Numbered from the stretch's first letter, positions 1 through 4,579 are shown. The stretch: DNA of 4,579 bases from a virus (IMGVR_UViG_2636416166_000007), one strand, 5' to 3'. The notes: generated by a model not told the origin, from the sequence alone. Numbers and translations: made by a program.

Positions 1-310
1 AACTCAAATAAATTACCCAGGCCCCAACTTCATTAGCCGCTTTGGCAATTGATTCAACGCTGGTCGCATTGAGTAATTGTGCAAATTCGGGTTCTGACTC
101 AGCCTTATCTACTGCGGTATGAGCCGCAGCATTAACAATTACATCAGGGCGAATTTTTTTGACGGTTTCAGCCACACCTTCAGGATTACTAAAATCACCA
201 CAATAATCAGTGGAGTGAACATCAAGAGCAATCAAATTACCCAAAGGTGCGAGAGCACGCTGTAGTTCCCAACCTACCTGCCCTGTTTTGCCGAAAAGGA
301 GAATATTCAT
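1..310 (-). CDS. rfbD: dTDP-4-dehydrorhamnose reductase (RmlD/RfbD), N-terminal ~103 codons; gene continues beyond the window start
   Basis: Minus-strand ATG at 308..310 shares one nucleotide with the rfbB TAA stop (310..312). Manual translation gives [76 protein letters not shown]..., an open frame to the window edge with an N-terminal glycine-rich nucleotide-binding motif (GKTGQVG), recognisable as RmlD. Absent from the ORF track because its stop lies outside the window. GAGGG lies about 11 nt upstream of the ATG. Confidence 0.85.
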   Translation of the reverse strand, partial: MNILLFGKTGQVGWELQRALAPLGNLIALDVHSTDYCGDFSNPEGVAETVKKIRPDVIVNAAAHTAVDKAESEPEFAQLLNATSVESIAKAANEVGAWVIYLS

Positions 311-1395
311 TACTGGCGGCCCTCATAGTTCTGTTCAATCCACGATTGATAAGCACCACTTTTCACATTCTCGACCCATTTTGCATTAGCCAGGTACCAT
401 TCCACTGTTTTACGAATCCCGCTCTCAAACGTTTCCTGCGGTTTCCAGCCCAATTCGCGGCTAATCTTCTCTGCATCAATCGCATAACGGCGATCGTGTC
501 CCGGGCGATCGGCAACATAAGTAATTTGCTCACGGTAAGATTTCTCTTTCGGTACAATCTCATCCAACAAATCACAAATAGTGAGCACTACATCGATGTT
601 TTTCTTTTCGTTGTGTCCACCAATGTTATAAGTTTCACCCGCTTTACCTTCGGTTACGACGATATATAACGCACGCGCATGATCTTCAACATACAGCCAG
701 TCACGAATTTGATCCCCTTTGCCATAAATAGGTAATGCCTTACCTTCCAGAGCATTAAGAATTACCAGCGGAATCAATTTTTCCGGAAAGTGATAAGGAC
801 CGTAGTTATTCGAACAGTTAGTCACAATGGTCGGTAAACCATAGGTACGTTTCCACGCACGGACTAAATGATCGCTGGATGCTTTTGATGCGGAATAAGG
901 ACTACTAGGCGCGTAAGCTGTCGTCTCAGTAAAGAGGGGTAATTGTTCTTTATTATTTACTTCGTCAGGATGAGGCAAATCACCATAGACTTCGTCAGTA
1001 GAAATATGATGAAAACGGAAGCTATTTTTCTTGTCGCCATCAAGAGCAGACCAGTAATTGCGAGCCGCTTCCAAAAGGACATAAGTACCAACAATATTGG
1101 TTTCAATAAATGCCGCAGGGCCTGTAATTGAACGATCCACATGGCTTTCAGCAGCCAGGTGCATCACTGCATCCGGCTGATGCTGAGCAAAAATCCGCGC
1201 CATTGCAGCAGCATCGCAAATATCAGCATGTTCAAAAACATAGCGTTCAGAGTCAGAAACATCAGCAAGTGATTCCAGGTTTCCGGCGTACGTTAATTTA
1301 TCGACATTAACAACACTATCCTGCGTATTATTTATAATGTGACGAACTACAGCAGAACCAATAAATCCTGCGCCACCAGTAACAAGTATCTTCAC
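310..1395 (-). CDS. rfbB: dTDP-glucose 4,6-dehydratase (RmlB/RfbB)
   Basis: 361-aa ORF from the track, with GTG start codon at 1393..1395 and TAA stop at 310..312. Carries the N-terminal Rossmann motif GGAGFIGS, the YxxxK catalytic motif (YSASK) and STDEVYG, typical of extended short-chain dehydrogenase/reductase dTDP-glucose dehydratases. Full-length sequence is recognisable as enterobacterial RfbB. Confidence 0.95.
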
Positions 1396-1469
1396 TTTAT
1401 TATTCCATATTACTTCAGAGCATGCTGTGAAATAAGCGGCTCTCAGTTTGATTAATAGAGGTATTAATG

Positions 1470-1481
1470 CACGCTACCGCC
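1470..1481 (-). promoter_or_regulatory. ops element (operon polarity suppressor), RfaH recruitment/pause site
   Basis: Plus strand reads CACGCTACCGCC at 1470..1481, so the minus (rfb-sense, non-template) strand reads 5'-GGCGGTAGCGTG-3', an exact match to the 12-nt ops consensus. It sits 74 nt upstream of the rfbB GTG. Confidence 0.9.
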
Positions 1482-1508
1482 CCTGGCTTTACAGCTACCA
1501 GAGCACTG
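1470..1508 (-). promoter_or_regulatory. JUMPstart 39-bp element in the rfb operon leader
   Basis: Minus-strand sequence 5'-CAGTGCTCTGGTAGCTGTAAAGCCAGGGGCGGTAGCGTG-3' matches, as I recall it, the conserved JUMPstart sequence found upstream of polysaccharide gene clusters. It contains two GGTAGC copies and the ops site at its 3' end. Confidence 0.85.
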
Positions 1509-1662
1509 CATGCATGTCTACGATGTGACGAGCGTTACCCACTCGCGCTAAACCCGAAAAATTCAAACGCTAATTGTCTTACCAATCCGCTCTGGAAACA
1601 AGGAAAATCCTGGAAAACTTTGACTAAAATCCTATTGCTAACTCGTTGTTATCCTGATTGTT

Positions 1663-1766: not shown

Positions 1767-2660
1767 TTATTCGCTTAACAACTTCTCAATCCCTTTACGG
1801 AACTTCGCCCCTTCTTTCAGGTTGCGTAGTCCATACTTCACGAACGCTTGCATATAGCCCATTTTTTTACCGCAGTCGTAGCTGTCACCTGTCATCAGCA
1901 TGGCATCAACGGACTGTTTTTTCGCCAGTTCAGCAATGGCATCAGTCAGCTGAATACGTCCCCATGCACCAGGCTGAGTACGTTCCAGTTCCGGCCAAAT
2001 ATCGGCAGAAAGCACATAGCGACCAACGGCCATGATGTCTGAGTCCAGCGTCTGCGGCTGATCCGGTTTTTCGATAAATTCGACGATGCGGCTGACTTTA
2101 CCTTCGCGATCCAGTGGTTCTTTGGTCTGGATGACCGAGTATTCAGAGAGGTCACCCGGCATACGTTTTGCCAGCACCTGGCTGCGGCCCGTTTCATTGA
2201 AACGTGCAATCATGGCAGCAAGGTTGTAACGCAGCGGGTCGGCGCTGGCGTCGTCGATCACAACGTCTGGCAGCACCACGACAAATGGATTGTCACCAAT
2301 GGCAGGTCGTGCACATAAAATGGAGTGGCCCAAACCTAAAGGTTCGCCCTGACGCACGTTCATAATGGTCACGCCCGGCGGACAGATGGACTGCACTTCC
2401 GCAAGCAGTTGACGCTTTACGCGCTGTTCAAGGAGAGATTCTAATTCATAAGAGGTGTCGAAGTGGTTTTCGACCGCGTTCTTGGACGCGTGAGTTACCA
2501 GGAGGATTTCTTTGATCCCTGCAGCCACAATCTCGTCAACAATGTACTGAATCATTGGCTTGTCGACGATCGGTAGCATCTCTTTGGGAATCGCCTTAGT
2601 GGCAGGCAACATATGCATCCCAAGACCCGCTACAGGAATAACTGCTTTTAAATTCGTCAT
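1767..2660 (-). CDS. galF: UTP-glucose-1-phosphate uridylyltransferase paralog GalF (297 aa)
   Basis: The track ORF 1767..2672 starts at an upstream in-frame GTG. The conserved GalU/GalF N-terminus [14 protein letters not shown] begins at the ATG 2658..2660, preceded by AGGTGG (2674..2669) at 8-nt spacing. Contains GLGMHMLP, with M-H in place of the T-R of catalytic GalU, the GalF hallmark. TAA stop at 1767..1769. Confidence 0.92.
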
Positions 2661-2834: not shown

Positions 2835-4229
2835 CTACTCCCCCCGTTCCGGCAATCTAAAGTTAATCTTTTCCACATTAACAATATGGTGATTAATCCT
2901 GTCGATATCGACGGAGCTTTGCCCTCTTTCATTCACCGCATGAACATTTGCAAGAGATAGTAGTGTTTCTTTTTTCGCCATAAAGACGCCGCGAACGTCT
3001 TTGCGCATGTCGAAGTTCATGCTCAATGCTGGTCCAACAGAGGATTCCTGCATCACATTAATATTACGCATAAAAAGGTGTTGTGGTTTGTTGTGTAACT
3101 CCAGCGACGCACGCTTCATCTCAATGTTAGTCAGCGCCACACAGGAGACAGCATTCCCGGCGGAGATTTGGATGCCGCGCAATTTATAAGCAAGATGGGT
3201 GTTATCTAGTTGAATATTATTCACTCGGAAATTTTGCGGTATCGAGAGATATTTGCCTTTAATTACCCCATAGCCGATTAACATCCCGGCGCTATTAATC
3301 ATTTCAATATTATCAATCACGAAATTGTCACAACCGTAAATAGCAACTGTCGCGTTATCAATACCTGCTTTCTTACTGAAATCCGGCGTGATATTGCGGG
3401 CTTTGATATTACGAATAACAAAATGTTTACCATTTTCAACATGGATCAGTTGCCGACAATCCGATCCCGTGATATTCGCCACGACAAAGTTTTTCACTGC
3501 CTGGTCTTCCGGATAATTATTATCGTAGGTACTTCCCGCAAGACCTATGCCGATGCCCCAGTTGATTTTGCCGTTGGTACAGTTGATGCGCTCAATAACG
3601 TGGTCAGATATCAAAATATCACTGTCGTTAATCGCCACGTTCCATTCAATGGCATCGCCCTGTAAGTCGCTGAACTTACAATTGGTGATGTTGGCACCGA
3701 TAATCTGGTTATGAAATCCCTGGCGTAAGATGGCGTAATTAGCGTGGCTAACGGTCAGGTTATCGATGGTCAGGTTGCGCATGACCTGTTTGTTTTTGCC
3801 GCCGATATAAATCTGCGTTACCGGGCCAAAGCCGCTCATAGTCAGCCCTTTGATGGTGCAGTCGGAACCACGCACATCCAGGGTGATGTTATGCATACTG
3901 CCGCCCTCCTCCCCTGTCACCTGGCTGCCGTCCTGTAAAACAAATCGCCCTCTGCCGTTGCCGCGCAGGCTTCCAAGGATGTGTAACGTTTTACCTGCAG
4001 GAATGAAGATGCCGGTGTTGATATTGTCGCAAACCAATCCGCCAGGCACGACGACCGTTTGCCCTTCGCTGAAGGCTTGTTTAAATGAGGCGATCCAGTC
4101 GTGAGGGTTGTAGTCGTTAATGTTAACGCTTTGTCGGGCGGGAAGTGCGCGAGCGAAAGGGGTATGGAGGAAGGCAAGCGCCGAGCTTGCCGTCAGGAAG
4201 GTGCGTCGGGAGAGTTTTTTAAATGGCAT
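2835..4229 (-). CDS. wcaM: Colanic acid cluster protein WcaM (464 aa), predicted Tat-exported right-handed beta-helix protein
   Basis: 464-aa ORF with ATG at 4227..4229 and TAG stop at 2835..2837. The N-terminus [28 protein letters not shown] has a twin-arginine motif (SRRTFLT), a hydrophobic core and an AxA cleavage site. The mature part has reiterated asparagine-containing segments ([72 protein letters not shown]) typical of parallel beta-helix repeats. Recognisable as WcaM, the last gene of the colanic acid cluster. Confidence 0.93.
4146..4229 (-). other. Predicted twin-arginine (Tat) signal peptide of WcaM (about 28 aa)
   Basis: SRRTFLT matches the Tat consensus S/T-R-R-x-F-L-K, with the RR codons at 4203..4208. 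It is followed by a hydrophobic stretch (ASSALAFL) and FARA, with the predicted cleavage after Ala28. The cleavage position is an inference. Confidence 0.6.
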
Positions 4230-4234
4230 GCGTT

Positions 4235-4239
4235 CTCCT
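4235..4239 (-). promoter_or_regulatory. Shine-Dalgarno (AGGAG) for wcaM
   Basis: Minus strand reads TAG-AGGAG-AACGC-ATG: AGGAG immediately follows the wcaL TAG stop (4240..4242) and lies 5 nt upstream of the wcaM ATG. Confidence 0.55.
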
Positions 4240-4579
4240 CTATAAAGCCTGCAACAAGCTGGCGAGTTCTCGATTAATCACCTGCTGGTTAAAATCGTGT
4301 TCGACTTTTTCGCGCGCACGTTTGACAACCGTAGTAAGTTCGTCGGTGTCCAGTTGGCTAAACGCCGCCAGTCGTTGCGCCAGTGCGCGAGCATCGTTCT
4401 CAGGCACCAGCCAGCCGGATTTATCGGCCTCCACCAGTTCCGGTATTCCGCTATGCAGAGTAGAAACCACCGGAATGCCGACCGCCATCGCTTCCATCAG
4501 CGCCACCGGAATGCCTTCCATATCGCCGTCAGCACCCGTTACCGATGGCAACAGAAAGACATCCGCATCGTCGAGCATC
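4240..4579 (-). CDS. wcaL: Colanic acid glycosyltransferase WcaL (GT4 / GT-B family), C-terminal ~112 codons; gene continues beyond the window end
   Basis: Open frame from the window edge to the TAG stop at 4240..4242, ending ...[11 protein letters not shown]. The sequence [27 protein letters not shown] is typical of the C-terminal sugar-donor domain of GT4 glycosyltransferases. Recognisable as WcaL, and its position directly upstream of wcaM fits the known cluster order. Confidence 0.85.

Follow-up and report, generated by a model that had tools for sequence, protein, structure and literature searches.

What is the short conserved element that lies in the spacer between galF and rfbB, and which function can be ascribed to it at the head of the operon that follows? 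The DNA stretch considered here, called the window throughout (IMGVR_UViG_2636416166_000007, 4,579 nucleotides), had been credited in a preliminary description with a perfect JUMPstart sequence ending in an exact ops site. The element is, with high confidence, a canonical JUMPstart/ops that an E. coli O-antigen (rfb) operon carries in its untranslated leader, and nothing in the sequence speaks against this canonical reading.

Identity of the element and its gene context

All the genes of the window are placed on the minus strand and run from the wcaL 3' end through wcaM, galF, the spacer and rfbB to the start of rfbD. At this locus the colanic acid cluster, galF and the O-antigen cluster adjoin one another in the arrangement classical for E. 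coli. Its features are the following:

4578..4240, minus strand: wcaL, 3' end
4229..2835, minus strand: wcaM
2660..1767, minus strand: galF, conserved upstream flank of the O-antigen locus (NCBIfam TIGR01105, 689 bits; annotation in relatives)
Between galF and rfbB: the galF-rfbB spacer, 371 bp, which houses JUMPstart
1508..1470, minus strand: JUMPstart element, 39 nt, CAGTGCTCTGGTAGCTGTAAAGCCAGGGGCGGTAGCGTG, read directly
1481..1470, minus strand: ops 12-mer GGCGGTAGCGTG, the last 12 nt of JUMPstart
1471, minus strand: ops pause position U11
310..1395, minus strand: rfbB (rmlB), dTDP-glucose 4,6-dehydratase, first gene of the O-antigen operon (NCBIfam NF007490, 796.6 bits)
1..310, minus strand: rfbD (rmlD), 5' part (sequence and annotation in relatives)

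The rfbB gene begins with a GTG codon, the same start that RefSeq annotates in the relative strain C-SRM-3; over the galF-rfbB spacer this strain and the window share 99.7% identity. The ATG of rfbD overlaps the rfbB stop codon (TAATG). Since positions 1469..1396 separate ops from rfbB, the gap amounts to 74 nt, as had been counted before. The motif shares the minus strand with rfbB and rfbD and is therefore carried by the non-template strand. With these two genes downstream, and galF and the last colanic acid genes upstream, the earlier assignment of the element to the leader of an O-antigen operon holds.

The spacer is present in 3720 of the 5426 complete E. coli genomes searched by megablast, every time on the chromosome. 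The window takes in only the first 1.4 kb of the operon. In strain C-SRM-3 the full O-antigen cluster extends for approximately 10.7 kb from JUMPstart to gnd, and its GC content drops to 26-31% beyond rfbBDAC. Long AT-rich operons of this type are those that need RfaH.

The other end of the window (2835-4578), containing wcaM and the 3' end of wcaL, is the distal part of the colanic acid operon. In E. coli CFT073 an exact ops precedes this operon too, in the wza leader, where RfaH is bound only in the hns and stpA deletion and the signal reaches wcaL (PMC9765446). Two successive ops-led operons thus meet in the window, the first with its distal end and the second with its start. The wcaM-galF spacer contains an imperfect 17-nt direct repeat on the plus strand (2678-2694, AAATGGTTGCTGAATTA; 2734-2750, AATTGATTACTGAATTA), with the copies 56 nt apart. 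Placed just upstream of galF, it may be part of the galF promoter or a regulator site.

The identity of the element is established by two readings that agree in their coordinates. The 39 nt read directly on the minus strand are also found by the Rfam cmscan search, which places the JUMPstart family (RF01707) at exactly 1508..1470 with 60.0 bits, a gathering score of 35 and an E value of 1.9e-12. The match is full-length (model positions 1-38 of 38). It departs from the Rfam consensus at three positions in the variable 5' part and by one nucleotide inserted in the loop. On the other hand, K-12 (strain J53) and CFT073 have the same 39-mer without a difference, and the whole leader upstream of it is identical or nearly so in both strains. 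JUMPstart has no single canonical 39-mer. The word perfect, used in the preliminary description, is therefore exact for ops and for the comparison with K-12 and CFT073, but not for the comparison with the Rfam consensus.

The JUMPstart sequence was reportedly described by Hobbs and Reeves in 1994. The copy in the window has the properties of the family: 39 nt, a place in the leader of a polysaccharide cluster, ops at the 3' end, a 5-bp stem and a GGTAGC-containing loop. Nothing material sets it apart. This is a known element type, a textbook example as the preliminary description had recognized, and the present copy is identical to the best-studied ones.

The ops consensus GGCGGTAGnnTG, as given in PMC13596475, is matched without a mismatch, including the RfaH-contact bases G4, G5, T6, A7 and G8 and the pause bases T11 and G12. 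The same 12 bases make up the ops12 oligonucleotide with which the RfaH:ops complex was solved (PMC5995543), and they recur in CFT073 at the sites of rfaQ, wzx, wza, tssH and c4518. When the element is aligned to JUMPstart elements of other operons, a check that the preliminary description had proposed, it aligns readily. Its ops has the consensus form, whereas variant bases occupy positions 10-12 at hly and kps (GGCGGTAGCATG and GGCGGTAGCATA in the CFT073 table). As in other known ops sites, the motif is found in the non-template strand of a leader, in one copy, tens of nucleotides before the first gene. The distance from G1 of ops to the first gene is 86 nt in the window, compared with 40-71 nt for wzx, kps and rfa in CFT073 and 87 nt in K-12. 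Within the window GGCGGTAGCGTG has no second match, even when two mismatches are allowed. Given that 0.25 matches per window are expected by chance for a 12-mer with up to two mismatches, loose ops-like matches alone would be weak evidence.

The distribution of the element among other operons was examined by scanning species-representative genomes for the exact 14-mer GGGGCGGTAGCGTG. The matches listed are mostly chance matches in GC-rich genomes, and the true JUMPstart elements were recognized by a GGTAGC placed 10-15 nt upstream. At least 17 elements were identified in this way (alignment A2); the 14-mer used for the selection fixes the 3'-most base of the stem. Among the matches listed, the first genes behind the element are rfbB, wzx, wza, a waaQ-type heptosyltransferase gene, a kpsM-like permease gene and a wzi-type capsule gene. 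The carriers listed belong to approximately 12 genera or more, including Shigella, Citrobacter, Leclercia, Cedecea and Intestinirhabdus, as well as Phytobacter, Symbiopectobacterium and Arsenophonus. The 3' half of JUMPstart, GGGCGGTAGCGTG, is invariant in all 17 elements of A2 among the matches listed. GGTAGCT and AGCC(A/T)GGGGCGGTAGCGTG are essentially invariant in the same set, with one O43 locus carrying an A for the first G of the G-run. The separate plasmid search for tra and hly leaders retrieved none at this sensitivity; of the matches of that search that were inspected, one is a chance match and one the transposed fragment L131 described next.

Two further observations were made among these loci. 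An ISAs1-family transposase gene (H-repeat type) is found just downstream of JUMPstart in the unrelated loci L052 (Cedecea) and L131. The latter, from the Providencia rettgeri plasmid p06-1619-1, is a transposed JUMPstart-ISAs1-rfbB fragment in which the transposase gene is followed by a recombinase-family gene and then by rfbB. Also among the matches listed, GGGGCGGTAGCGTG occurs without the GGTAGC half in Halomonas and relatives (L031, L056, L065, L082 and L096). In Halomonas it is preceded by a different conserved inverted repeat, ATGGATGGC...GCCATC. In a further five loci listed (L030, L078, L092, L098 and L125, several from Pseudomonas), again without the GGTAGC half, the motif (A/C)(T/C)CCT recurs before the 14-mer. 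These arrangements suggest that, outside Enterobacterales, ops sites may have other upstream partners.

Anatomy of the spacer and the serotype junction

The conservation of the spacer was followed in an alignment of eight diverged E. coli loci (A1), two of them with wzx as the first gene instead of rfbB. The spacer contains only four invariant runs of at least 8 nt, which are listed here together with the predicted structures of the minus strand:

1728-1671, minus strand: galF terminator-like hairpin, 58 nt, followed by GTTTTATAT at 1670-1662
1573..1617, minus strand: promoter-like block, with -35-like TTGTTT (1601-1596), a 17-nt spacer and -10-like GACAAT (1578-1573)
1617-1595, minus strand: invariant run TTTTCCAGGATTTTCCTTGTTTC (A1, 8 loci)
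1585-1573, minus strand: invariant run TTGGTAAGACAAT (A1, 8 loci)
1546-1528, minus strand: leader hairpin GCGAGTG-GGTAA-CGCTCGT, 7 bp (-9.7 kcal/mol, z -2.8)
1501-1483, minus strand: JUMPstart stem-loop, in which CTGGT (1501-1497) pairs with GCCAG (1487-1483) around a 9-nt loop, matching the Rfam consensus structure
1500-1491, minus strand: invariant run TGGTAGCTGT, JUMPstart 5' half (A1, 8 loci)
1482-1470, minus strand: invariant run GGGCGGTAGCGTG, JUMPstart 3' half (8 of 8 A1 loci)

In A1 the two halves of JUMPstart are invariant islands amid an otherwise diverging spacer, and, JUMPstart aside, no part of the galF-rfbB spacer is better conserved than the block 1617-1573. This block is probably the sigma-70-type rfb promoter, although it can alternatively be read as an extended -10 element (TGgTAAGAC at 1584-1576). 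The position of the hexamers would place the start of transcription at about 1565-1570. The transcription unit start predicted from RNA-seq in CFT073 is 67 nt upstream of ops and maps to about 1548, approximately 20 nt from the start derived from the hexamers. A full-text literature search for a mapped rfb transcription start found nothing relevant, and for this reason the promoter assignment rests on conservation and on the CFT073 RNA-seq prediction.

Upstream of the block, the galF hairpin has a folding energy of -29.9 kcal/mol (z -6.8), a stability that 0 of 200 shuffles reach. In a locus with 81% identity (L002, 1500-1580) an equally strong hairpin and the T-run are kept despite the sequence changes, and the segment 1728-1662 looks like the intrinsic terminator of galF. 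Because this terminator-like hairpin follows galF and would shield the leader from transcription coming from upstream, the invariant block most likely supplies the rfb leader with a promoter of its own. The ops site is intergenic, and both the hairpin and the promoter-like block lie upstream of it, a placement that supports its transcription as part of the leader. A simple promoter and terminator scan called neither of the two features, the promoter-like block being below its threshold. The only promoter-like sites that the scan found on the operon strand, 1888-1861 and 1789-1760, lie within or overlap the 3' end of galF, upstream of the strong terminator-like hairpin, and are not favoured. 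An Rfam match to MIR8001 (22.9 bits, gathering score 90) is spurious and reflects the inverted repeat of this same hairpin.

The leader hairpin at 1546-1528 sits between the inferred start and JUMPstart. In the O113 locus the same place has a different sequence that still forms a hairpin (L004 1720-1738, -7.8 kcal/mol). A longer stem, in which ATGCATGCA pairs with the 3' part of ops and encloses JUMPstart, appears in the fold of the full leader. This stem is apparently retained in the rfb-type leaders of E. coli but does not recur when other operon types are compared, and it is treated here as locus-specific. Folds of the whole leader are no more stable than those of shuffles (z -1.2 and -1.3). 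For the O7 rfb cluster of E. coli, Marolda and Valvano (1998) reportedly described a galF-rmlB spacer with its own promoter and RfaH dependence. The leader there is said to have about 170 nt with stem-loops and a JUMPstart with 'two ops' copies. The promoter-like block, the leader hairpin and the stem enclosing JUMPstart fit this O7 description.

The 5' half of JUMPstart is predicted to form the short stem-loop listed above, which is weak when folded alone (-4.1 kcal/mol, z -1.1). Across the 17 elements among the matches listed, 96.5% of the stem cells are paired. One pair changes from U-A to A-U in three genera, is G-U in one and is broken in two, and three of the five pairs never vary. RNAalifold across operon types keeps only this 5-bp helix and a tiny helix inside ops. 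The heptamer GGTAGCT is invariant in 17 of the 17 elements among the matches listed, even though it is mostly loop, and such an invariant loop is more than a plain hairpin needs. Within the run TGGTAGCTGT at 1500-1491 the RfaH-contact core of ops, GGTAGC, occurs a second time, upstream of ops, but the flanks that determine the pause are missing there.

On the 3' side of ops the conservation of the leader ends abruptly. Invariance in A1 falls to 0-13% in every 15-column bin, and homology to the loci of CFT073 (O6; L129), O113 (L004) and O43 (L006) stops within 1-2 bases of the ops 3' end. As inter-serotype homology ends at 1469/1470, ops is the exact upstream junction of the serotype-specific DNA. 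The window as a whole is matched above 97.4% by no complete E. coli genome. Relative to C-SRM-3, the leader (1401-1800) has 1 mismatch and a part of rfbB (601-1000) has 54 mismatches in 400 nt. Judged from these alignments, the window is a patchy recombination mosaic. Window positions 1-6 fall outside all alignments. One locus of E. coli IH5 (L008/H30, NZ_CP168949.1 5164770-5164808) was set aside: its 39 nt are identical to the galF-proximal spacer and lie beside a truncated 'tail fiber' pseudogene, amid many partial genes, and the stretch is probably an assembly artefact.

The probable role of RfaH at ops and competing explanations

The function of ops is known from work on identical sites. 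The element is a consensus pause whose non-template strand forms a small hairpin that presents T6; the recruitment of RfaH needs G4, G5, A7 and G8, and the pause is set by T11/G12 (PMC5995543). The C-terminal domain of RfaH recruits ribosomes to leaders lacking Shine-Dalgarno elements (PMC5995543). One primer of this study is an exact match to window positions 1430-1449, and the comparison suggests that its in-vitro ops template carries the present rfb leader sequence downstream of ops.

For the cellular function a comparison is offered by CFT073, where the leader follows the window colinearly, beginning at the galF stop and including ops. The exact 12-mer has six copies in the CFT073 genome: all five leader copies in the non-template strand are bound by RfaH, and the single in-gene copy, in ushA, is unbound (PMC9765446). 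The ops of the O-antigen operon heads a 15,375-bp RfaH ChIP peak (30.6-fold) that is gone in the rfaH deletion. Without RfaH, the occupancy of RNA polymerase declines along the operon, with a relative traveling ratio of 0.1-0.34 of wild type 5.4 kb downstream (PMC9765446). In this strain RfaH counteracts H-NS/StpA filaments and Rho, and its presence on RNA polymerase from this ops through the O-antigen operon is reported for K-12 too (PMC9765446).

The identity to ops12 and the evidence for RfaH at identical sites in CFT073 make the standard RfaH explanation the best one. Sequence, strand, position and context are read in the window itself, and the mechanism is established knowledge for identical sites, from which we infer that the operon of this strain depends on RfaH. 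Transcription would initiate at the putative sigma-70-type promoter (block 1617-1573), approximately 90 nt upstream, and would proceed on the minus strand through JUMPstart. Then, RNA polymerase reaching ops (1481-1470) would pause at U11 (1471). The hairpin of the non-template ops DNA would be recognized by RfaH, which subsequently would load on the polymerase and exclude NusG. Along the long AT-rich operon, RfaH would counter pausing, Rho-dependent termination and H-NS silencing, and at rfbB it would aid the recruitment of ribosomes to a weak ribosome-binding site. The Shine-Dalgarno of rfbB is indeed weak: its best anti-SD duplex has -3.3 kcal/mol, compared with -5.9 to -9.1 for galF, rfbD and wcaM. 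Both this weak site and the terminator-like hairpin behind galF fit the RfaH model.

The question arises whether the sequence could be intact and yet idle, kept only as a recombination anchor at the edge of the locus, or left at the head of an operon that is broken downstream or in a cell from which rfaH is absent. The element does stand at a recombination junction, with inter-serotype homology ending immediately 3' of ops, the window is a patchy mosaic relative to its closest relatives, and the remainder of the operon lies beyond it. A recombination anchor, on the other hand, needs no base-perfect conservation of exactly those bases that RfaH reads. The same element precedes unrelated operons (waaQ, wza, kpsM-like and wzi-type) in many genera among the matches listed, identical sites are bound by RfaH in K-12 and CFT073 (PMC9765446), and the promoter-like block, rfbB and the start of rfbD are all intact. 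An idle site is for these reasons considered very improbable. The probability of a chance resemblance without biological meaning is smaller still, and negligible. The exact 12-mer appears in 0 of 200 dinucleotide-preserving shuffles of the window, the covariance model matches all 39 nt with an E value of 1.9e-12, and position, strand and context are correct. In addition, the chance matches to the 14-mer among those listed do not have the upstream GGTAGC half, which the element of the window has.

A further explanation operates at the level of the RNA; it complements the canonical one and excludes nothing of it. With the polymerase at U11, the nascent-RNA hairpin of 1501-1483 could form in the exit channel and lengthen or shape the pause, or limit backtracking, and in this way widen the window for the loading of RfaH. 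We regard this as possible but rather unlikely, and give the same tentative standing to the sequence of events in which the hairpin would hold the polymerase at ops until RfaH arrives and RfaH would then override the hairpin. The geometry is that of a hairpin pause, and because the 5-bp stem ends 12 nt before the pause position the stem might tune the ops pause. More precisely, the stem has G1483 as its 3' base, at an upstream distance of 12 nt from the pause 3' end at 1471; for pause hairpins, formation at 11-12 nt upstream of the 3' end of the RNA is reported (PMC4227799). The 5-bp stem, the 9-nt loop and this distance are shared with the his-type hairpin-stabilized pause. The ops pause, in contrast, is classed as backtracked or pre-translocated, biochemically distinct from the half-translocated state of hairpin-stabilized pauses, and needs no hairpin in minimal scaffolds (PMC11001881). 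Rfam models JUMPstart as a structured cis-regulatory RNA, and the stem is the only conserved helix outside ops, with the pairing and the U-A to A-U change described above for the 17 elements among the matches listed. Still, with three of five pairs that never vary and two sequences that break the covarying pair, the covariation evidence from these listed elements is thin, and the selection by the 14-mer had fixed the 3'-most stem base of the sampled elements. Weighing on the same side are the low stability of the stem and the invariant loop GGTAGCT, which points to sequence-specific reading over a purely structural hairpin. In favour of such a hairpin, a September 2026 preprint reports that native rfaQ-leader ops pauses longer than bare ops and names RNA structure as a possible cause (PMC13596475), for which the hairpin of JUMPstart would be a concrete candidate. 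Hairpin-stabilized pausing is, moreover, suppressed by RfaH (bioRxiv 10.1101/324400). The recruitment of RfaH by the ops DNA remains the preferred explanation, to which an RNA hairpin would add.

Meaning for the O-antigen operon

The JUMPstart/ops element determines in which direction the O-antigen operon runs, where its 5' boundary lies and what regulatory logic it follows. The DNA 5' of position 1470 is conserved E. coli backbone, and the DNA 3' of it is serotype-specific and, by homology, would be transcribed under RfaH anti-termination. Annotators can rely on JUMPstart/ops to locate where an O-antigen cluster starts, and it also marks a recombination junction. The element adds nothing new to the biology, with the exception of the possible role of its conserved 5' half in the ops pause. 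If the hairpin does act there, it would explain the longer pausing of ops in its native leader relative to the bare 12-mer, and the 39-bp element of 1994 would gain a function beyond its last 12 bases.
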